In this document: positions 2,964-27,204 of the stretch, piece by piece | How positions within the stretch are numbered: the stretch's first letter is position 1 | Layout: each line of letters starts with the position of its first letter | Source of the DNA: a virus | Length of the DNA: 39,970 nt | Direction: 5' to 3' (one strand) | Virus genome (UHGV): UHGV-0404708 | Program-made: the position numbers and the translations under genes | The notes under the pieces: generated by a model | What the model was told of the DNA's origin: nothing | The model's database searches: none | The model's input: the letters and a program-made list of their open reading frames with translations, nothing else

Positions 2964-5434
2964 TGGCTATCAGTTGGATCCAGCCCAGCTTTGCCGGTGG
3001 TGAGATTGGACCGTCGTTGTACGGTCGTATCGACATGGCGAAGTACCAGGTGGCATTGCGCAAGTGCGATAACTTTATCGTGCGGCAGTATGGGGGTGTT
3101 GAGAATCGACCAGGTACGCGTTTTGTCGGTGCCGCCAAATACCCAAATCGGAAATGCCGCCTGATCCCGTTCCAGTTCTCGACGGTTCAGACTTATGCTC
3201 TGGAGTTCGGACACCAGTACATGCGCGTTATCAAAGATGGTGCGTTGGTGCTGAACAGCAGCAATGTTATTTATGAAATTGCCACGCCATATACTGAAGC
3301 CGATCTGTTCCGAATTAAATTCACGCAAAGCGCAGACGTGCTTACGCTTGTTCATCCGGCATACCCGCCGAAAGAGTTGCGTCGCTATGCGCATGACAAC
3401 TGGCAACTGGTTGATGTGGTAACGAAGAACGGACCATTTGAAGATATCAATATTGACGAGTCAGTGACGGTTTATGCCAGCGCCAGCACCGGGACAATTA
3501 CGTTAACGGCAAGCGCCTCTATTTTTGGCGCGGAGCAGGTAGGCAAATTGTTCTATCTGGAACAGCCTGCTGTGGATTCTGTGCCGGTATGGGAAACCAG
3601 TAAGAGTACGTCGATTGGCGATATTCGCCGTGCAGACAGTAACTACTATCGCGCCGTTACAGCAGGCAAAACAGGCACTTTGCGCCCTTCGCATACAGAA
3701 GGCACATCATGGGATGGCTGGGGCGGCTCCGGTGATGATGATACTGGCATTGAGTGGGAGTATCTGCACAGTGGTTTTGGCATTGCCCGTATAACTGCTG
3801 TAAATGGCACCTCAGCAACTGCCGAGGTGATTTCCTATATCCCTTCGCAGGTAGTTGGCGAGGATAATGCCAGCTATAAATGGGCTAAATATGCCTGGAA
3901 CAGTATTAACGGTTATCCTGGCACTGTTGTTTATTATCAACAACGTCTTTACTTCGCCGCATCGACTGCGTTCCCTCAGACTATCTGGGCCAGCCGTACT
4001 GGGGATTATAAGGATTTTGGCAAAAGCAATCCTACGCAGGATGACGACAGAATTATCTACACCTATGCCGGGCGTCAGGTTAATGAGATCCGCCACCTGA
4101 TTGATGTTGGTTCGCTGGTAGCGCTGACTTCCGGAGGTGAGTACGTCATCACCGGCGACCAGAACAAAGTATTAACCCCATCATCATTTGCATTCAGCTC
4201 TCAGGGATCAAATGGCTCGAGCAATGTCCCACCAATTGCCGTGGCGAATATTGCTCTGTTCGTCCAGGAGAAAGGCAGTGTTGTCCGTGATCTGGCCTAC
4301 TCATTCGATGTTGACGGCTATCAGGGGAACGACCTGACCATCCTTGCCAATCATCTTTTTCAGAAGCACAGCATTGTTGACTGGTGCTTCTCTATTGTCC
4401 CTTACTCCAGCGCCTTCTGCATTCGTGATGACGGTAAATTACTGGTGATGACCTATTTGCGTGATCAGCAGGTTTTTGCATGGGCACCACAATCCAGTAC
4501 CGGAAAATATGAAAGCACATGCAGTATCAGCGAAGGCAATGAAGATGCGGTGTATTTCGTCGTTAACCGAACCGTTAACGGGCAAACAGTGAGATACATC
4601 GAGCGGCTGTCCAGCCGTTTATTTACCAGCGATGAAGATGCTTTCTTTGTTGATTCTGGCCTTAGCTATGATGGAAGAAATACGTCTGACAGAACGATGA
4701 CCATCACTGGTGGTTCTGGTGAATGGGATTACCGTGCGGAATATACAATCAGTGTTTCTGGTGGTGCGTACTTCACCAGTAGTGATGTCGGTGCGCAACT
4801 ACAGTTCCCTTATACCGGAACTGATCCTGATACTGGCGATGAAGTGTCAAAAGAATTACGTTGCGACATTATTTCTGTAACCAGCAATACCGCTGTAGTG
4901 GTTCGTCCTAACAGGAACGTCCCGCCATCCCTCAGGAATGTGGCCACCACGAACTGGCAGATGGCGCGCCGGACATTTGGCGGCTTGTCTCATCTTGAAG
5001 GTCAGACCGTAAACATCCTCTCTGATGCGAACGTGGAACCACAGAAAGTAGTTTCCGGAGGTGCCGTCACGCTGGAATCTCCGGGGGCTGTAGTGCACAT
5101 CGGCCTGCCAATAACTGCTGAATTCGAAACACTGGATATCAACATTAACGGACAGGAAACGCTGCTGGACAAAAAACAGGTGATCCCGTCAGTTACTCTG
5201 GTTGTGAATGCCAGTCGCGGCATCTGGGCGACTACGCCCGGCGGTAAATGGTACGAATATCCACAGCGTGAATTCGAGTTCTACGATGATCCTGTTGATG
5301 ATGCTACCGGAAAAGTAGAAGTGAAGCTGGACAGTAACTGGGGCAAAAACGGACGTGTAAAAATCCGTCAGCTTGACCCGTTGCCGCTGTCTGTTCTTGC
5401 CGTTATTCCTCGCCTTACTGTTGGGGGATTCTGA
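2963..5434 (+). CDS. tail tubular protein B-like (nozzle)
   Basis: 823 aa; size, position and N-terminus (MA-IS...GGE) consistent with T7 gp12-type proteins; not searched. Confidence 0.55.
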   Translation: MAISWIQPSFAGGEIGPSLYGRIDMAKYQVALRKCDNFIVRQYGGVENRPGTRFVGAAKYPNRKCRLIPFQFSTVQTYALEFGHQYMRVIKDGALVLNSSNVIYEIATPYTEADLFRIKFTQSADVLTLVHPAYPPKELRRYAHDNWQLVDVVTKNGPFEDINIDESVTVYASASTGTITLTASASIFGAEQVGKLFYLEQPAVDSVPVWETSKSTSIGDIRRADSNYYRAVTAGKTGTLRPSHTEGTSWDGWGGSGDDDTGIEWEYLHSGFGIARITAVNGTSATAEVISYIPSQVVGEDNASYKWAKYAWNSINGYPGTVVYYQQRLYFAASTAFPQTIWASRTGDYKDFGKSNPTQDDDRIIYTYAGRQVNEIRHLIDVGSLVALTSGGEYVITGDQNKVLTPSSFAFSSQGSNGSSNVPPIAVANIALFVQEKGSVVRDLAYSFDVDGYQGNDLTILANHLFQKHSIVDWCFSIVPYSSAFCIRDDGKLLVMTYLRDQQVFAWAPQSSTGKYESTCSISEGNEDAVYFVVNRTVNGQTVRYIERLSSRLFTSDEDAFFVDSGLSYDGRNTSDRTMTITGGSGEWDYRAEYTISVSGGAYFTSSDVGAQLQFPYTGTDPDTGDEVSKELRCDIISVTSNTAVVVRPNRNVPPSLRNVATTNWQMARRTFGGLSHLEGQTVNILSDANVEPQKVVSGGAVTLESPGAVVHIGLPITAEFETLDININGQETLLDKKQVIPSVTLVVNASRGIWATTPGGKWYEYPQREFEFYDDPVDDATGKVEVKLDSNWGKNGRVKIRQLDPLPLSVLAVIPRLTVGGF

Positions 5435-5898
5435 TGATCTATGTTCAAATTATTCCCGCAACCGAAGAGCATCTTCAGATGATTTTGCCGGATGTTCGTC
5501 AGGCTGATATTGACGAACTGTATGCGGTATCACTGATGACTACCGAAGATGCGCTGCGTGTTGGTCTGCGTACTGCGACTATGGCCTGGTCAGGATTTGC
5601 GAACGGAGAACTGGTAACCATGTTTGGCGTATCTCCGGCGTCAATGATCGGTGGCAATGGTACGCCATGGCTGGTCGGAACCAGCCGTATTGAAAAATAT
5701 CAGAAGACATTTCTTCGCCACTGCCGACCTGTATTGCAGCAGATGCTGGCAGTTTATCCGCGCCTGGAAAACTACGTCGACGAGCGAAACCATGTTGCCA
5801 AAGCATGGCTGCACTGGCTTGGATTCAGGCTTGAAGAAGCCGCGCCTTATGGTGCTCTTGGTCTTAATTTCCACAGATTTCACATGGAGAGAAAATAA
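5434..5898 (+). CDS. hypothetical virion/assembly protein
   Basis: 154-aa ORF; TGATG overlap with upstream stop. Confidence 0.6.
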   Translation: MIYVQIIPATEEHLQMILPDVRQADIDELYAVSLMTTEDALRVGLRTATMAWSGFANGELVTMFGVSPASMIGGNGTPWLVGTSRIEKYQKTFLRHCRPVLQQMLAVYPRLENYVDERNHVAKAWLHWLGFRLEEAAPYGALGLNFHRFHMERK

Positions 5899-6443
5899 TG
5901 TGCGATCCGGTTATTGCTGGTGGCGCAATGCTCGCCATGAGTGGCATTCAGGCATACACCCAGTACCAACAGGGAAAGTATGCCTCGAAGGTTGCAGAAG
6001 CGAACGCAGATATAGCCACAGCTCAGGCAAATGATGCAATAAACAGAGGTAACGCTGAAGCTGAGCAACGGCGCAGAGAGACCCGACAGCGGCTTGGTAC
6101 ACAGGCGGCGACAATGGGGGCTACCGGCGCTGATTTATCTACAGGTAACGCGCTGGATATATTTGGCGACACTGCCCAGTTTGGCGCTCTTGATTCGCTG
6201 ACGACGGTGAATAACGCGCAACGCGAGGCTTACGGTTATCAGGTTCAGGCTGCTAACTATAAAGCAGAAGCCAGTTCAGCCCGTAAACAGGGGAATGTGG
6301 GAGCAGCAACAACATTGCTCACTGCTCCTCTGAAGGCATACGGTGCGTACCAGATGTTTGGTGGGACGTGGAGTCCGTTTACTCAAAGCACTCCTGCGCC
6401 AATCGGGGCAGCAGCAGGAACCAGATTACCCGGAGGATTATAA
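5898..6443 (+). CDS. internal virion protein (gp14-like position)
   Basis: 181 aa, Ala/Gly/Gln-rich; TAATG overlap with upstream gene. Confidence 0.55.
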   Translation: MCDPVIAGGAMLAMSGIQAYTQYQQGKYASKVAEANADIATAQANDAINRGNAEAEQRRRETRQRLGTQAATMGATGADLSTGNALDIFGDTAQFGALDSLTTVNNAQREAYGYQVQAANYKAEASSARKQGNVGAATTLLTAPLKAYGAYQMFGGTWSPFTQSTPAPIGAAAGTRLPGGL

Positions 6444-8956
6444 TGCCAGTCGTACCAACAGTATCCGGACGCCAGGTTGAGAGCCGTGGAGTTCAGTCAG
6501 CAGGCTTGCAGACGTTTTCTCAGCCAGGTATTGGTGATGCTTTTGTTCGGGCAGGGACAGAGGCAATTGATGTTTTGGGGCAGGCAAAACAGCGTGCCAA
6601 TATCGCTCTGGCTCAGGAGGCATCTCTTAACCTCAGTCAGATAAGCAGTGATCTGCTGAATAACCCTGAAACAGGTTTGCTTAACCTGAAAGGGAAAAAT
6701 GCTATTGGAAAAGGTCAGGAGTATACGCAGCAGTTTGATGCTCAGGTCGAACAACTGGCTATGTCGCTGCCGGATGAACAGGCTCGTAATGCTTTCATGC
6801 AGCAGGCGCAGCAGCAGCGCATTCAGTTCACTACGCAGGCCGGGCGGCACGAGATAGGGCAAATAAATGCCTACGAAGAAGGCCAGTTTCAGGCGACACT
6901 GCTGAACAATGGTAAAAATGCCGCAGCATTGTATGGCGACAACGCCGCATATGTATTGGCTAATAAGCAAACTTTCCAGCAAATTGAGGATTACGGCATT
7001 GCACATGGCTGGAGTGACGAGCAAATCCAGGCCAAGAAAATCGAGTTTAAAGAAGCAACAGCAAAAGCAACTGCTCAAAATGCTATTGGAGCAAACTATC
7101 TTCAGGTAAGACAGCAAAACGGCGAGTTAAGCGATACTGCTGCTGGATCTCGCCGTGCTGTAGCAGATAGTGGATCTTCCGATCGTACCCGCGGTATACG
7201 CAACAATAACCCCGGAAATCTTGAATACAGCAAAACTAATCCGTGGGTTGGGCAGACTGGTGATGATGGTCGCTTTGCCAAATTCGAAACCCCTGAACAC
7301 GGTATTCGTGCATTAGGGCGGAACCTGATGTCGTATCAGCGGCAGGGTATTGATACCGTCAGTGAGATAATTAATCGCTGGGCACCGCCCACTGATAAAA
7401 ATGACACAATGTCGTATATCAAAGCAGTGTGCGAACAACTTGGCGTTTCTGCTGATGAGCCTCTCGATGCATCTAATCCGGATACCCTGAAGGCGCTTTG
7501 TGCAGCCATTATCCATCATGAAAACGGTAGCCAGCCATACAGTGATCAGCAGTTAACTGCTGGTGTTAGTGCCGCGCTGGGGCTTTCTCAGCTACCGACA
7601 AAAAATAAACGTTATACCGGTGTAGCCTGGTTCGATGCTTTAAGTGAATCAGATCAGGCCAGCGTGTTGCGACAGACTGATGCACTAGCCAGACAACAGC
7701 AGGCTGAATATAAAACGATGCTCGACAGCCGGGTTCGCGATGCGACGGCTGCGTATATGCGTGGCGTTGAATTTCCTAACCCACCTGGTGAGGATGATTT
7801 TATTGCAGCTTATGGAGTCAGAGAAGGAAACCTGCGATATACCGAGTTTAAGAATACGCAGATCGCCGGACAGTATATAGGCTCTTTCCGCAACATGCCG
7901 ACAAGCAGCATTACAGCATATGTTGAGCAATTACGCCCGGATACTGGTGATACAGGGGATGGGTATGCGGCACGCGCAGCTCTTTATGACAACGTTGTTT
8001 CGGCTGCAAATCAGGTGATAAAGCAGCGGCAGTCGGATCCTGTGCAGTTCTCTCTTGCCTCCGGACAGGCAAAGCCTATCGACATGAGCAATAAGGATAA
8101 CTTTGGACAGAGCGTTGCCTTGCGTGCCGCTCAGGTCAGTGACCTTGCTAAGTCATATGGCACTCCACTGACGTTCTTTTCCAAAGACGAGGCCAATCAG
8201 ATCGGTGTTTTCTTTCGTGATGCTCCAGTTTCCCAACAGGCAGCATATCTCGACACCATCAGGCAGAGCACTGGTGGTGGGCAGGTGTATATGTCAGCAC
8301 TACAGCAGATCAGTGCCAACGCTCCATCTGCTGCCGTTGCCGGGATACTGATGGATAAGCCTGGTGGTATTTTGGCAGAAAAAAACTGGTTTAATCCGGA
8401 TGTTTCCGTGTCTCCTGAAACCGCTGCGCAGACAATTCTTGCTGGCGCGGCGGCTCGTAAAGGTGCTGATGATGCGAAAGGTATTCCGATGCCTAAAGAT
8501 GCTGATCTTCGCCTTGAGTTTTCTGACATGGTGAAGGATGCATTTGCTGGTGACGCTCATGGGGCATCAATGGCATACGAGATCGCAAAGGATTATTACG
8601 CTGGTGTGATGGCGAAAAAAGGCGTGGTATCAGGAGAAATTGACAATGATGTCTGGAAACAGGCTGTTAACGTAGCTACAGGTGGCGTGCATGACTATAA
8701 CGGAATGGGGAATGTCCTTTTGCCGTGGGGAATGTCTGCAGAGCAATTCGATAAGCAGGTTAATCAGGCTTGGAATGAACAAGTTGTCGGCTCCGGGATA
8801 AAAACACCGCCTGGTCAGTATGGTTTGCAAAGTTACGGCGATAGTCAGTACCTGGTGAAACTTGGTACTGGTTATCTGCTGAAAGATGATGGTTCTCCCG
8901 TTGTTCTTAATCTGACACAGAAGCGTCAGAGATTCTCCGGAGATATTCCGCAATGA
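6443..8956 (+). CDS. internal virion/core protein with possible cell-wall hydrolase domain
   Basis: Track ORF 6368..8956; ATG 6443 overlaps upstream stop (TAATG); central block with NNPGNL...WAPP motifs (about nt 7180-7560). Confidence 0.55.
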   Translation: MPVVPTVSGRQVESRGVQSAGLQTFSQPGIGDAFVRAGTEAIDVLGQAKQRANIALAQEASLNLSQISSDLLNNPETGLLNLKGKNAIGKGQEYTQQFDAQVEQLAMSLPDEQARNAFMQQAQQQRIQFTTQAGRHEIGQINAYEEGQFQATLLNNGKNAAALYGDNAAYVLANKQTFQQIEDYGIAHGWSDEQIQAKKIEFKEATAKATAQNAIGANYLQVRQQNGELSDTAAGSRRAVADSGSSDRTRGIRNNNPGNLEYSKTNPWVGQTGDDGRFAKFETPEHGIRALGRNLMSYQRQGIDTVSEIINRWAPPTDKNDTMSYIKAVCEQLGVSADEPLDASNPDTLKALCAAIIHHENGSQPYSDQQLTAGVSAALGLSQLPTKNKRYTGVAWFDALSESDQASVLRQTDALARQQQAEYKTMLDSRVRDATAAYMRGVEFPNPPGEDDFIAAYGVREGNLRYTEFKNTQIAGQYIGSFRNMPTSSITAYVEQLRPDTGDTGDGYAARAALYDNVVSAANQVIKQRQSDPVQFSLASGQAKPIDMSNKDNFGQSVALRAAQVSDLAKSYGTPLTFFSKDEANQIGVFFRDAPVSQQAAYLDTIRQSTGGGQVYMSALQQISANAPSAAVAGILMDKPGGILAEKNWFNPDVSVSPETAAQTILAGAAARKGADDAKGIPMPKDADLRLEFSDMVKDAFAGDAHGASMAYEIAKDYYAGVMAKKGVVSGEIDNDVWKQAVNVATGGVHDYNGMGNVLLPWGMSAEQFDKQVNQAWNEQVVGSGIKTPPGQYGLQSYGDSQYLVKLGTGYLLKDDGSPVVLNLTQKRQRFSGDIPQ

Positions 8957-14017: not shown

Positions 14018-14650
14018 TTAATGCAGTTTATCTTTGCTTATAACCAGTAGTCTGTGGGTATGCACATCTTTATCACTGCCCCAACAGAAATCAGCCCACT
14101 GGCTATAGAAATCATCCCATGATGTCATGAAGCTAAGAGGTCTATCTTCTTCAGAGCCATCTGAAACGTATACATTATATCCTGGGGTGTTTATAGCCCA
14201 AGAAATCATTCTTTCCCAGAATCTTCTCCCATCGATTGTTTGTTGCTCATCAGATACAACGATCGCATATTGCTCTAGGAAGAACTGAAAAAAAATCTGA
14301 GGCAAACCATGAACAGCACGGTCATGAATAACATTAGGCGTACGCCATACCATGATCTGCGTACATGTTCTTTTGGCTTCGACGATATCTTCCCGAAAGA
14401 TTAACTTAACCGCATACACCGTTTCTGGAGTATCGCTGGTAGTAATCATTCTGTAATGATCGCCATTACAAGATTTTACAAGGCGATAACCATAAGGTGT
14501 TGTGAATCCCGGAAGAACGAAATCAACCACACCTTTCGCTAAGTAGCTTTCGGTGTGACTAGTGTTCTTCTCAGACATGTTCAGTTTTCTATCGAAATCT
14601 GCTTCTGGGATAATGTATGGCATCGCTTTTCTTGTTGTATTTGTTCTCAT
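14018..14650 (-). CDS. hypothetical protein (unrecognised, accessory)
   Basis: Track ORF 14018..14662; ATG 14650 preferred (SD GGAGGA 5 nt upstream); AT-rich; own operator-like site upstream. Confidence 0.7.
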   Translation of the reverse strand: MRTNTTRKAMPYIIPEADFDRKLNMSEKNTSHTESYLAKGVVDFVLPGFTTPYGYRLVKSCNGDHYRMITTSDTPETVYAVKLIFREDIVEAKRTCTQIMVWRTPNVIHDRAVHGLPQIFFQFFLEQYAIVVSDEQQTIDGRRFWERMISWAINTPGYNVYVSDGSEEDRPLSFMTSWDDFYSQWADFCWGSDKDVHTHRLLVISKDKLH

Positions 14651-14708
14651 TTCGTCCTCCATGTTTGGCTACAGGACGCGTTTTGAAGGGAAGATTAAAA
14701 ATGCTTTC

Positions 14709-14723
14709 TTACCCTTGAGGTAA
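14709..14723. promoter_or_regulatory. operator-like palindrome TTACC-N5-GGTAA
   Basis: TTACCCTTGAGGTAA, exact; upstream of 14018..14650. Confidence 0.5.
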
Positions 14724-14795: not shown

Positions 14796-15515
14796 TCAGA
14801 AGAACCCTGCCTTGTCGTTGATGTACTCCGCGTGCGTCTGGATATCACGCAGGCATTTGCTCACACCGACGATGTAGCAGAACATGGTGGTCAGCTCCGC
14901 CGCCGCGCCCGATACGTCGTGCCCGTCGTCCTGTAACTGGTTCAGCAGATTCATCAGCAGTGAGTTCTCAGTCAGGCCGAGAACACCAGACGGGGAATGA
15001 ATCAGGCTGCGGTAGCCGGGCTTCAGCGGGGCACTGTATTCTTTTTTGTCTTCCAGCTTGATCGCCTCCATAATGGCGGGCATGAATTTTTCAATTACCT
15101 GAGTGGCCTTTGATAAATCAGCTCCACCTGAGAGACGAACATCTCCACTGACATTTGCGGGTTTTCTGTCGAAGTAGCAATCTTCCAGTTTTTCGAAGAC
15201 CTCCCACGCTTTTTCAGTCTCAAGAATTTTCGCATGTCGTGCTGCACCGCGAGCGGTCCATAAGAAAAGATGACTTACTTTTGGTGCAATATTAAGCAAA
15301 CCTCTTTGAGAGGACTCGTTCTTAAATGCTCGTAATTCTTCGCCTGTCAGCTTGAAACAATGTTTTCCCTCAATGAATCGATCTGCATTTCGTTGATAGT
15401 TTTGACGAATCAGTTTGGGTTCTGTGTCATACAAATCAGCAAGCATTTCTGTAGTCATTACAGGGATGTTGCAATGAGTTGTTATCGGCAACTTATCAAT
15501 AGCTATATTACGCAT
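14796..15515 (-). CDS. ORF6N-domain protein with C-terminal domain paralogous to 16329..16586 (antirepressor-like)
   Basis: Track ORF 14796..15530; ATG 15515 preferred (SD GGAGG, 8-nt overlap with upstream stop); N-terminus fits the ORF6N/KilA-N-type DNA-binding pattern; C-terminal ~60 aa align with the 85-aa protein. Confidence 0.65.
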   Translation of the reverse strand: MRNIAIDKLPITTHCNIPVMTTEMLADLYDTEPKLIRQNYQRNADRFIEGKHCFKLTGEELRAFKNESSQRGLLNIAPKVSHLFLWTARGAARHAKILETEKAWEVFEKLEDCYFDRKPANVSGDVRLSGGADLSKATQVIEKFMPAIMEAIKLEDKKEYSAPLKPGYRSLIHSPSGVLGLTENSLLMNLLNQLQDDGHDVSGAAAELTTMFCYIVGVSKCLRDIQTHAEYINDKAGFF

Positions 15516-16014
15516 TTTCATTGCCTCCATCTTTCACGACGAAATAGCAATTATCTTTATAATCTAACTGGATGAACTTTATGTTTTCAGGGAGTTTTAC
15601 AGAAAGAGTTTTTGCACAAGCAAAACCAAAATCTGCGCCAGAAGCATCCATATACCTTAATAATTGTTTTAATGCTGAAGGAGAAAAAGTATCTACCTTC
15701 ACCTCAACAGGGTAACCATCTTTTGTTTTTAGGTCTGGTTGACCTGGTCCACCAAGTATTTCAGCGTTAAGGTATTTTGCTATTTCTGGATAAGCGTTGT
15801 ATTCAGAGCGTAGTTTTGCCTTGTTATCGACTGCTAGTTGCATAAGATGATCAAACAAATTGGTATCTAAATCTGCCCCTTCATCCCACATTCTATTTCT
15901 ACAGCTAATCAATTCACTGACCAGAGGTGCACTTTCTTGCCTTAGCATAAGAAGGAGTGGAGAATTAGAAATTAACCAATACAGATCGTCGTTTGAGATT
16001 TTTTGGCCTGGCAT
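15508..16014 (-). CDS. hypothetical protein, possible PD-(D/E)xK-like motif
   Basis: 168 aa; SD AGAGGT 7 nt before ATG; segment GQPDL...YPVEVK resembles a D...E-x-K nuclease motif (weak); translationally coupled to next gene. Confidence 0.6.
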   Translation of the reverse strand: MPGQKISNDDLYWLISNSPLLLMLRQESAPLVSELISCRNRMWDEGADLDTNLFDHLMQLAVDNKAKLRSEYNAYPEIAKYLNAEILGGPGQPDLKTKDGYPVEVKVDTFSPSALKQLLRYMDASGADFGFACAKTLSVKLPENIKFIQLDYKDNCYFVVKDGGNENA

Positions 16015-16328
16015 AGCGATACCTCTACTAGTAAGTTACCCACCACCGCAACGCCAATTGCTGGTGGTGAACTGGACAAGGTTGGCGTACCGGCCTAGTA
16101 GGTACCGGCGCACCTTTCGGTGCCCCTGCCCAGCCCACCATAATTCGGATATGACTGTGCTATACGCATAAAAAAACCACGTCTGGCGTGGTATGCGCCT
16201 ACTAGTAATCCGGGACGCCAATCCCGGCACTGGATTTTGCCAGTGCCCGATTACTATGGCACAAGAGGAGTGCGATGTAAATTTACCGCAAAGGTAAATA
16301 TAAGCACTCCACTTGGTAATTGCAAACC
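16015..16328 (-). ncRNA. heavily structured intergenic element (candidate ncRNA or cis-regulatory leader)
   Basis: 314 nt without convincing ORF between two minus-strand genes; at least five stem-loops, two with identical hexaloop, one GNRA-type loop, an internal hairpin plus T7 run, 8-bp direct repeat GTACCGGC x2. Confidence 0.35.
16170..16192 (-). terminator. intrinsic terminator-like hairpin inside the structured element
   Basis: Minus sense ACCACG-CCAGA-CGTGGT followed by TTTTTTT; T-tract itself flanked by complementary CGCATA/TATGCG. Confidence 0.4.
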
Positions 16329-16586
16329 TTATATGGTTTGTTTTCGTAATTGTTCGGCACAATAGTCGAGATGTGTTTGCAGATCCCGCATAGACATCTG
16401 TGAGCTGGTGACGTAGTTAATCAGTGCAGTCAGTTCGGCAAGTGGGCCATCGACATTAAATCCATCCTTATCGAGATCCCGGAGTAATTTCATCAAGTGC
16501 GATCCCTCCACCAGTGACCTGACGCCTCCCGGCGTGTGAATCCTTTCGGTAAATCCGTCTTCCAGTGGATAGTGATACCGCTGCAT
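16329..16586 (-). CDS. small protein (85 aa), paralog of the C-terminal domain of 14796..15515; LexA-controlled
   Basis: Track ORF 16329..16604 (TTG); ATG 16586 with SD GGAG 8 nt upstream; LexA box and sigma70-like promoter immediately upstream. Confidence 0.65.
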   Translation of the reverse strand: MQRYHYPLEDGFTERIHTPGGVRSLVEGSHLMKLLRDLDKDGFNVDGPLAELTALINYVTSSQMSMRDLQTHLDYCAEQLRKQTI

Positions 16587-16607: not shown

Positions 16608-16623
16608 CTGTATAAATATACAG
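16608..16623. promoter_or_regulatory. LexA (SOS) box
   Basis: CTGTATAAATATACAG; 20-mer AACTGTATAAATATACAGTA matches the E. coli consensus TACTGTATATATATACAGTA at 18/20. Confidence 0.8.
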
Positions 16624-26619: not shown

Positions 26620-27204
26620 TTATTGTTTGCTTTTTTCGTTCTGGTTGATGACAAATTCAATGTAACTTTCGATCTTTGCTTTCTCGGTTTCGGGTAACAA
26701 TGCGTAGCGCGAGCGGTCATAGTTGATGGTCGCAGGGTCGTGCGGGTGAATCAGTAATTCATAGCCGTGACGCCCGAATGCGGATGCAACATTCTCCAGG
26801 GTGGAAATGGAAACGCTGACCTCATTGTTTAACAGGCGGCTGATTGTCACCTGGGCGACGCCGGATGCGCGGTGAAGTTTTCCCTGCGTTGAAAGGTCGC
26901 GGCTTTCGCTCATCCAGCGTTCCAGGTTGTGAGCCGCCAGCTGACCAATGTCGCTTGGGCCGACAGGCTGAAAACCTTCCTGAGAAAGCGAGCGATCGAT
27001 ATCAAGCCAGTTACGGGGTTTATTGGCGGCAGCTTCAATTTTTCGTGCAACCTGGTCGCCGATAACCTTCTTGCCAAGAGCCCAGCGGTTTACCAGATTT
27101 GCCTGAGTTCCAAGTTTTTCTGCCATCCGCGTCTGAACACCATTGAATTCACGGTCGATCAAGTCGTTGAGATTTTGCCTGCGGACGTCCTGGATACTTT
27201 TCAT
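26620..27204 (-). CDS. immunity repressor with two HTH-type segments, no autopeptidase domain
   Basis: 194 aa; HTH-like segments near aa 24-46 and 120-155; divergent from Cro-like gene across operator region; no Ala-Gly...Ser...Lys LexA-type cleavage module. Confidence 0.7.
   Translation of the reverse strand: MKSIQDVRRQNLNDLIDREFNGVQTRMAEKLGTQANLVNRWALGKKVIGDQVARKIEAAANKPRNWLDIDRSLSQEGFQPVGPSDIGQLAAHNLERWMSESRDLSTQGKLHRASGVAQVTISRLLNNEVSVSISTLENVASAFGRHGYELLIHPHDPATINYDRSRYALLPETEKAKIESYIEFVINQNEKSKQ

Follow-up and report, generated by a model that had tools for sequence, protein, structure and literature searches.

An SPC32H-type Ant domain occurs twice in a phiV10-like Escherichia coli prophage: alone behind a LexA box, and fused to ORF6N behind a C4 RNA

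Introduction

Why should a single prophage encode the same small domain in two neighbouring genes, once as a free-standing protein and once attached to a DNA-binding module, and on which repressor would the two products act? The question is raised by the virus genome UHGV-0404708, a stretch of 39,970 nucleotides (nt) that was analysed as a whole and is termed the window below. The locus in question (positions 14,796-16,586) encodes, on the minus strand, one protein of 85 amino acids (aa) and another of 239 aa. A first-pass annotation, made from the sequence alone, had proposed that the two share a domain of ~60 aa, that they form one operon of which only the smaller gene is controlled by LexA, and that the copies constitute either a regulated/decoy pair or a set of effectors for two targets.

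By nucleotide identity the window is a phiV10-like prophage of Escherichia coli: the E. coli podophages phiV10, TL-2011b, phiv142-3 and ZX5 (genus Uetakevirus) are 90-95% identical to it in the region around the locus. Of 5426 complete E. coli genomes, 533 (~10%) match the 2.8-kb region at least in part. The shared domain was traced to the Ant antirepressor of Salmonella phage SPC32H. We favour, with moderate confidence, the reading in which one effector domain directed at the repressor Rep is served by two inputs: the SOS response via LexA, and an RNA switch resembling the immI system of phage P1.

Results

Duplication of the domain

The genes at the centre of the analysis are the following.

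14796..15515, minus strand: large antirepressor, 239 aa, consisting of ORF6N, a linker and an Ant-like C-domain
16329..16586, minus strand: ant, free-standing 85-aa Ant antirepressor, orthologue of SPC32H Ant (5D50_E, phrog_450)
26620..27204, minus strand: rep, 194-aa prophage repressor (PDB 5D50 chain A, 'Repressor', E=3.5e-42, full length)

The 85-aa protein was aligned by BLASTP to the large protein with 32 identities in 74 ungapped positions (43%, E=3e-16). The aligned span runs from residue 2 to 75 of the small protein and from 163 to 236 of the large one (in the numbering of a 244-aa form; ~157-231 in that of the 239-aa form). The Smith-Waterman score of 164 compares with 27±4.4 (maximum 68) for 2000 shuffles of either partner, i.e., z≈30. 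Judged by these alignments, the duplication is real and far beyond chance, as the first-pass annotation had held; its boundaries (residues ~20-80 of the small protein) were slightly off, the peptide quoted there being residues 16-72 and the alignment reaching from 2 to 75. The fusion of one copy to the C-terminus of an ORF6N domain was likewise borne out (PF10543, E=6.5e-20, 71.7 bits versus a cut-off of 27.8), with ORF6N covering residues 16-102 of the 244-aa form (nt 15225-15485) and the Ant-like C-domain covering nt 14823-15047 plus a C-terminal helix. The large gene probably starts at ATG 15515, which follows a GGAGG located inside the preceding open reading frame (ORF), ORF168: the relatives of the large protein annotated by PGAP are 239 aa long, and a start at the more 5' ATG, 15530, would extend the protein to 244 aa.

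Fifteen residues are invariant in both types of paralogue (Y4, I16, H17, G21, L25, S29, M32, L35, D41, G42, V45, A50, E51, Y58 and H72), and the conservation between them is not confined to the long helix but peaks in the extended segment at the N-terminus. Comparing the small with the large type of the same lineage gave 35-39% identity in all three lineages compared, from which it follows that the duplication is old and that both copies have been maintained. One 84-aa protein, P0138, combines an N-terminal half of the small type with a C-terminal half of the large type and is thus a chimeric small Ant; the large-type patch DGHDVSGAAAE is present in several small Ants (P0095, P0110 and P0120). 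The two types thus recombine.

Identity of the domain

The small protein matched chain E of PDB entry 5D50 ('Anti-repressor protein', Salmonella phage SPC32H) with 87% identity (E=3.5e-46), and residues 163-239 of the large protein matched the same chain with E=1e-13. Both proteins also matched phrog_450 (small, E=2.6e-47; large, E=7.4e-36). An AlphaFold2 (AF2) model of the large protein, built on an alignment of 33 sequences, was confident for ORF6N and for the C-domain, the latter at a predicted local distance difference test score (pLDDT) of 83-93. The linker, residues 116-133, scored below 50 and is probably disordered, and the model ends in a single long C-terminal helix (residues 202-238). 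When this model was compared with the PDB by Foldseek, the top match was again 5d50_E (template modelling score 0.82, root-mean-square deviation 1.3 Å, probability 1.00); 5d50_G was the second, and there were no other meaningful PDB matches. On the sequence matches and the predicted fold, the shared domain is the SPC32H Ant antirepressor domain, whose fold the C-domain of the large protein shares.

The first-pass annotation had asked whether the domain might resemble ORF6C. At E<=1 in Pfam, the large protein matched only ORF6N, with no ORF6C, and the small one only a sub-threshold DUF724. Since no Pfam or NCBIfam model covers the shared domain, KilA-C and ORF6C included, it is not ORF6C; it has the fold of SPC32H Ant instead. 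The small Ant is annotated today as 'hypothetical protein', and its family as 'unknown function' in PHROGs, while the large Ant is an 'ORF6N domain-containing protein'. The entire large protein is matched by phrog_1760, 'anti-repressor' (E=1.3e-97), and its ORF6N part alone matches eight other antirepressor PHROGs, which carry different C-termini. The family is small: of 1.84 billion cluster representatives, a profile search recovered 64 at E<=1e-3. Word-indexed protein searches with the 97-aa C-domain returned mostly fragments, and the architectures became visible with the full-length query and the profile search.

The proposed repressor partner

The product of rep is a homologue of the SPC32H Rep. 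It is 99.5% identical to the Rep proteins of phiV10, ZX5 and TL-2011b and 42.7% identical to that of SPC32H, and no further Rep homologue was found in the window. In SPC32H, the Ant tetramer reportedly binds the C-terminal domains of Rep and takes the Rep tetramer off its operator; this Rep is said to remain uncleaved on SOS induction and to be inactivated by Ant, whose promoter LexA represses. A collection of 50,697 phage records was searched for both partners, and all 32 of the Ant-positive records fell within the 37 that were Rep-positive. From the homology and the co-occurrence, we infer that Rep is the target of both Ant-domain proteins of the window.

The divergence of Ant did not track that of Rep cleanly, and no conclusion on specificity was drawn from it. 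The small Ant is 87% identical to that of SPC32H at 43% Rep identity, and only 65% identical to that of a Klebsiella phage at 45% Rep identity. For the large C-domain, the corresponding values are 79% in Enterobacter phage Tyrion (Rep 78%) and 52% in the Klebsiella phage (Rep 45%).

LexA box of the small gene

Two elements precede the small gene.

16608..16623: LexA (SOS) box CTGTATAAATATACAG, overlapping the -10 of P_ant, 22 nt 5' of the small ATG
16644-16639 and 16620-16615: promoter-like site P_ant, -35 TAGACA and -10 TATATT, respectively, the best promoter match

The box is near-consensus and is the sole match to CTGT-N8-ACAG in the region, in agreement with the first-pass description of a free-standing copy behind a LexA box. 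It is kept 5' of the small ant in 8 of 9 related loci, including that of SPC32H, and is degenerate in the Klebsiella phage. Between 14700 and 16600 there was no CTGT-N8-ACAG and hence no LexA box near the large gene. The statement that only one copy is under LexA holds as far as the box is concerned; the large copy is not thereby unregulated, as it sits behind a P1-type C4 switch.

The RNA cassette between the two genes

The small gene and ORF168 are separated by 314 nt, which hold a promoter-like site, an IsrK-like RNA, a terminator and a C4 RNA.

16253..16281, minus strand: promoter-like site for the IsrK-like/C4/large-ant unit (-35 TTTACA, 17-nt spacer, TG-extended -10 CATAGT)
16170..16259, minus strand: a1/b1 element, an IsrK-like RNA with terminator (Rfam)
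16060..16145, minus strand: C4 antisense RNA (Rfam RF01695, 76.7 bits, gathering cut-off 45, full-length model)
16015..16059, minus strand: leader with b2 UUGGCGU (16057-16051) and a2 CUAGUAG (16031-16025), recognised by C4 loop pairing
15508..16014, minus strand: ORF168, first cistron after C4 (phrog_18738, unknown function, E=6e-119)

Transcription is predicted to start at ~16246, which is position 1 of the Rfam isrK model (RF01394; 68.1 bits, gathering cut-off 50, 16246-16170), and the promoter-like site is conserved in the alignment of relatives. The IsrK-like RNA ends in an intrinsic terminator, with a stem at 16192-16176 and a U-run. The C4 RNA folds in the canonical shape, with a minimum free energy of -46.7 kcal/mol, and exposes the loops CCUACUAG and ACGCCAA. 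The exact complements of these loops, CUAGUAGG and UUGGCGU, occur in the IsrK-like RNA and covary with them. On the other side of C4, the a2 site CUAGUAG(AGGUA) at 16031-16020 covers the Shine-Dalgarno sequence GAGG of ORF168 (16025-16022), located 7 nt 5' of its ATG. The stop of ORF168 in turn overlaps the start of the large ant by 8 nt (ATGCGTAA), a layout typical of translational coupling.

C4 was present in every examined relative carrying a large Ant. Pairing was compared in eight cassettes, namely that of the window and seven others. Loop and target sequences change together in all eight, with four a-types and two b-types in five combinations; the AntA-type cassette of one E. coli prophage (L009), for example, has the loops CCACUUAG/AGACCAA. 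Within a cassette, each of the four sites pairs without mismatch along 7-9 nt, as compared with 4-6 nt for heterologous pairs. The energies of whole-RNA duplexes are only ~2-3 standard deviations better than those of mononucleotide shuffles, and the argument for C4 pairing rests on the covariation of loops and sites, not on these energies. In the other seven cassettes ORF168 is absent, and the large ant directly follows the leader as the first ORF.

The proposal of one operon did not survive this analysis: a promoter-like site, an intrinsic terminator and two RNAs lie between the genes, and several relatives (TL-2011b, the Klebsiella phage and several prophages) have inserted genes at that junction, some in reverse orientation. 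The small and large genes are neighbouring modules and not an obligate operon. The junction of the small ant and the IsrK element appears as an insertion hotspot (L002 4017-4930, L005 1751-2209, L006 4553-5576 and L008 4873-5601), which holds ~900 bp in TL-2011b, reverse-oriented ORFs in E. coli prophages and, judged by eye, an apparent HicA/HicB-type toxin-antitoxin pair in the Klebsiella phage. Two mechanically called ORFs of the window that overlap the IsrK-like and C4 RNAs, at 16036-16362 (minus strand, 108 aa) and 15860-16171 (plus strand, 103 aa), are almost certainly not genes.

Distribution and domain shuffling

SPC32H, SPN1S and the epsilon15-like phage VB_ST_E15 gave a match to the small Ant domain only, and the SPC32H locus has neither C4 nor IsrK. 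Both copies occur in the E. coli phiV10 group, in Enterobacter phage Tyrion and in Klebsiella prophages. At 90-100% identity, the C-domain is joined to ORF6N in the window, to Bro-N in TL-2011b and ZX5, and to AntA, a combination very common in E. coli; a more distant C-domain is joined to Phage_pRha. The AntA N-domain shares 63-75% identity with its counterparts in antirepressors of Shiga toxin (Stx) phages and is found in hundreds of Firmicute phages.

Some prophages have three Ant-domain genes, i.e., a small gene, an AntA fusion and a Bro-N fusion, the C-domains of the two fusions being 100% identical. In two such E. coli prophages (L008 and L009, ~5400-8700), a small gene with a LexA box is accompanied by convergent AntA-AntC and Bro-N-AntC genes, and each fusion has its own IsrK/C4 of different a'/b' specificity. 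TL-2011b carries in addition a P22-type immI module (L002 728-1912, 899-966) with an Arc-like repressor, a 314-aa Ant and a sar RNA (44.8 bits), which gives that phage three differently regulated antirepressor systems.

A palindrome associated with rep

A palindrome, TTACC-N5-GGTAA, was found 15 times in the window with <=1 mismatch, versus 0.7 expected (20-fold enriched).

16283..16297: palindrome TTACC-N5-GGTAA, putative Rep operator, abutting the -35 of the IsrK/C4 promoter
14709..14723: second palindrome, between the large ant stop and ORF214
Starts of the 15-nt palindromes: 14709, 16283, 16663, 20958, 26486, 26548, 27260, 27308, 27645, 29584, 29646, 33962, 33980, 37122

Most of the sites are intergenic and are clustered around rep, which is flanked by four of them, and its divergent neighbour. 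One lies 5' of P_ant, likewise in SPC32H (L003 2413-2427). The half-sites of the palindrome at 16283 are invariant in all eight cassettes, and its spacer is variable. From their sequence and placement, the palindromes are probably the Rep/Cro operator set. If the palindrome at 16283 is a Rep operator, the cassette of the large Ant would be repressed by Rep, as the P1 immI operon is by C1. In P1, the promoter of that operon is controlled by the primary repressor (Op51/C1).

Neighbouring genes

ORF168 had no match in Pfam, NCBIfam, PADLOC or the PDB, nor by tblastn against the phage records. A 'PDL...EVK' motif hints at a PD-(D/E)xK nuclease, and the single-sequence AF2 model reached a pLDDT of only 38. 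On the 3' side of the large ant lies a further ORF.

14018..14662, minus strand: ORF214, 3' of the large ant (phrog_1349, unknown function), preceded by the palindrome

Sequence searches of Pfam, NCBIfam, PADLOC and the PDB returned nothing for ORF214, which may be a Rep-controlled moron.

Discussion

Proposed mechanism

In the scheme that we favour, DNA damage would remove LexA and the free 85-aa Ant would be made, thereby permitting SOS induction of a phage whose repressor is not cleaved by RecA. Both Ant-domain proteins would act on the resident Rep. The 239-aa ORF6N-Ant protein would be the payload of a P1-type immI cassette with its own promoter, possibly shut by Rep via the palindrome. 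The IsrK-like a1/b1 RNA would be transcribed, and most of it would probably end at its terminator; read-through would yield C4, which, by base pairing of its two loops to the leader, would mask the ribosome site of ORF168. Given the overlap of the two genes, blocking the translation of ORF168 would block that of the large Ant too, leaving the latter silent in the lysogen. The large Ant would be made on infection or superinfection of a cell without matching C4, or alternatively after Rep inactivation, when an excess of a1/b1 RNA would titrate C4, and would then reinforce the switch. The N-terminal ORF6N would serve as an interchangeable generic module and the C-terminal Ant domain would confer Rep specificity. 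Within this scheme the binding of the large protein to Rep, the control of the second promoter by Rep and the anti-antisense role of the IsrK-like RNA are what we infer from the comparisons.

A functional result is available for a close relative. Overexpression of ZX5 ORF4, the Bro-N version of the large protein, lowered the prophage/lysogen titre from 1e9 to 1e6 (~1000-fold) and reduced transcription of the repressor (PMC9782041). The C-domain of ZX5 is 91%, and its Rep 99.5%, identical to that of the window. The same paper is silent on SPC32H, on the small Ant and on the shared domain.

A more extended version of the scheme can be considered, which is possible and in our opinion short of probable. 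Here, Ant would be a portable Rep-specific effector with generic N-domains, and the locus would form a commitment circuit of three inputs. Loss of LexA would yield the small Ant, which would inactivate Rep and derepress the Rep-operated IsrK/C4 promoter; the IsrK-like RNA would titrate C4, and the large Ant would lock in the lytic state. In the competition among related prophages, the cassette would in addition serve as an immI determinant like that of P1, C4 having several specificities.

Several observations weigh against the proposed scheme or parts of it. The large C-domain differs from the small Ant at about 60% of its residues, and each type has its own sequence in the first half of the long helix (ALINYVTSSQMSM versus TMFCYIVGVSKCL). 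The match of the a1/b1 element to the Rfam model c4-a1b1 (RF03163; 16259-16207) amounts to 45.1 bits, just under the gathering cut-off of 46.7. The palindrome could belong to Cro or to another regulator. Relatives carry insertions at the junction, some of them reversed, so that the IsrK element cannot in general be reached by simple read-through from P_ant. The large gene is dispensable, as shown by SPC32H, SPN1S and VB_ST_E15. In phiV10 itself (L001 3012-3691), the large antirepressor is frameshifted within the C-domain and annotated as p23 plus the 29-aa p22, and the large copy is therefore probably inactive in the type phage. Finally, the ZX5 experiment involved a glutathione S-transferase (GST) fusion under overexpression (PMC9782041).

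Alternative explanations

The C-domain of the large protein might be mainly a tetramerisation scaffold, in which case the effector proper would be the variable N-domain, with DNA or other repressors as its target, and mixed tetramers with the small Ant might form. The swapping of N-domains on a near-constant C-domain, to the point of two different N-domains on 100% identical C-domains in one prophage, agrees with such a role, as do the long C-terminal helix (202-238) of the model and the occurrence of the same N-domains in many antirepressors of phages with unrelated repressors. SPC32H Ant is indeed a tetramer, but the Ant domain alone is the entire antirepressor there (PMC9638917). Moreover, a generic oligomerisation module would not need the strict co-occurrence with the Rep family, and the conservation between paralogues is strongest in the N-terminal extended segment. 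This alternative is thus rather unlikely.

The first-pass suggestion of two targets would have the small Ant act on the resident Rep and the large Ant on Rep variants of other immunity types, as an anti-immunity weapon. The antirepressors of the immI systems of P1/P7 and P22 act in superinfection; the phiV10 record labels the large gene 'anti-immunity protein', C4 has several specificities, and the paralogues, at 35-39% identity, have been kept apart in three lineages. On the other hand, ZX5 ORF4 affected the lysogeny of ZX5 itself, whose Rep is the same as that of the window. The identity of the C-domain also drops alongside that of Rep in Tyrion (79%/78%) and in the Klebsiella phage (52%/45%), which fits co-evolution with the phage's own Rep, and the chimeras and shared patches (P0138; DGHDVSGAAAE) show that the halves are interchangeable. 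A division into two targets is, on balance, distinctly unlikely. The other suggestion, a decoy or negative regulator that would damp induction, either by sequestering the small Ant or by binding Rep and leaving it undissociated, draws on the combination of a shared oligomerising domain with different regulation. It is very improbable: overexpression of the ZX5 homologue lowered lysogeny rather than stabilising it, and the cassette is built like P1 immI and Gifsy-1 isrK-anrP, which deliver antirepressors that trigger induction.

Comparison with known systems

Every component of the locus is of a known kind, i.e., SPC32H Ant, C4/IsrK, and the antirepressors with ORF6N, Bro-N or AntA. The Ant/Rep pair of SPC32H (PDB 5D50, 5D4Z) resembles that of the window in the 87% identity of Ant, in the LexA box over the promoter, in the position of ant between the injection-protein genes and the tail fibre gene, and in a Rep with the same two-domain layout. 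Unlike the window, SPC32H has the small Ant only, without C4, IsrK-like RNA or large Ant, and its Rep is 43% identical; in the window the domain is present a second time, as a fusion to ORF6N that is controlled by RNA.

The immI operon of P1/P7 is reported to consist of the c4 antisense RNA, icd and ant1/ant2. As in the window, the target sites a1/b1 and a2/b2 lie on either side of C4, the loop sequences determine specificity, and a2 is placed over the ribosome site of the first ORF, whose translation is coupled to that of the antirepressor in P1/P7 and, judging by the overlap of ORF168 with the large ant, may be so in the window. Relatives of the window also share with P1/P7 the AntA-type N-domain, the family of which is named after the P7 proteins. 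In contrast, the window belongs to a podovirus of the genus Uetakevirus, its first ORF is an unrelated 168-aa protein that is absent in relatives, and the C-terminal half of its antirepressor is an SPC32H-type Ant, matching a Rep-family repressor and not P1 C1.

In the isrK-orf45-anrP locus of Gifsy-1, an IsrK-family RNA with terminator likewise comes first; a processed RNA and a leader ORF follow, and then an antirepressor whose translation is coupled to that of the leader ORF. The IsrK RNA of Gifsy-1 activates translation of the downstream small ORF and, with it, of the antirepressor AnrP (PMC4825925). Unlike that of Gifsy-1, the cassette of the window lies directly 3' of a LexA-controlled small antirepressor with the same effector domain. 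No AntQ-type antiterminator was seen nearby, and an IsrK-like role is suggested by analogy.

The phage regulators built from Bro-N, KilA-N, ORF6N and AntA are said to be modular. Like the large protein of the window, these regulators and P22 Ant comprise two modules, with a few N-domains shuffled against various C-domains. The C-module of the window differs from theirs in that it matches no Pfam model and has a solved free-standing homologue with a known partner and mechanism. In the accessible literature that was found, there was no mention that the C-module of large antirepressors is the SPC32H Ant domain, nor of one effector domain under both LexA and C4 in one phage.

Significance

Antirepressors of the Bro-N/AntA/ORF6N/Rha types are annotated in thousands of phages, and the part that recognises the repressor is rarely known. 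For the C-module described here, the complex formed by a free-standing homologue has been solved, and the division of labour between the two modules is thereby directly testable. If the more extended version of the scheme is true, it would provide a general rule for the large and mechanistically obscure family of 'Bro-N/AntA-type' antirepressors, namely that the C-terminal module carries the repressor specificity. The locus also unites LexA-controlled small antirepressors with the RNA switches of P1 immI and Gifsy-1 IsrK on one effector domain. As about one in ten complete E. coli genomes matches at least part of the region, the circuit is relevant to prophage induction and to interference among prophages in E. 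coli, including phages associated with enterohaemorrhagic E. coli (EHEC), such as TL-2011b and phiV10.

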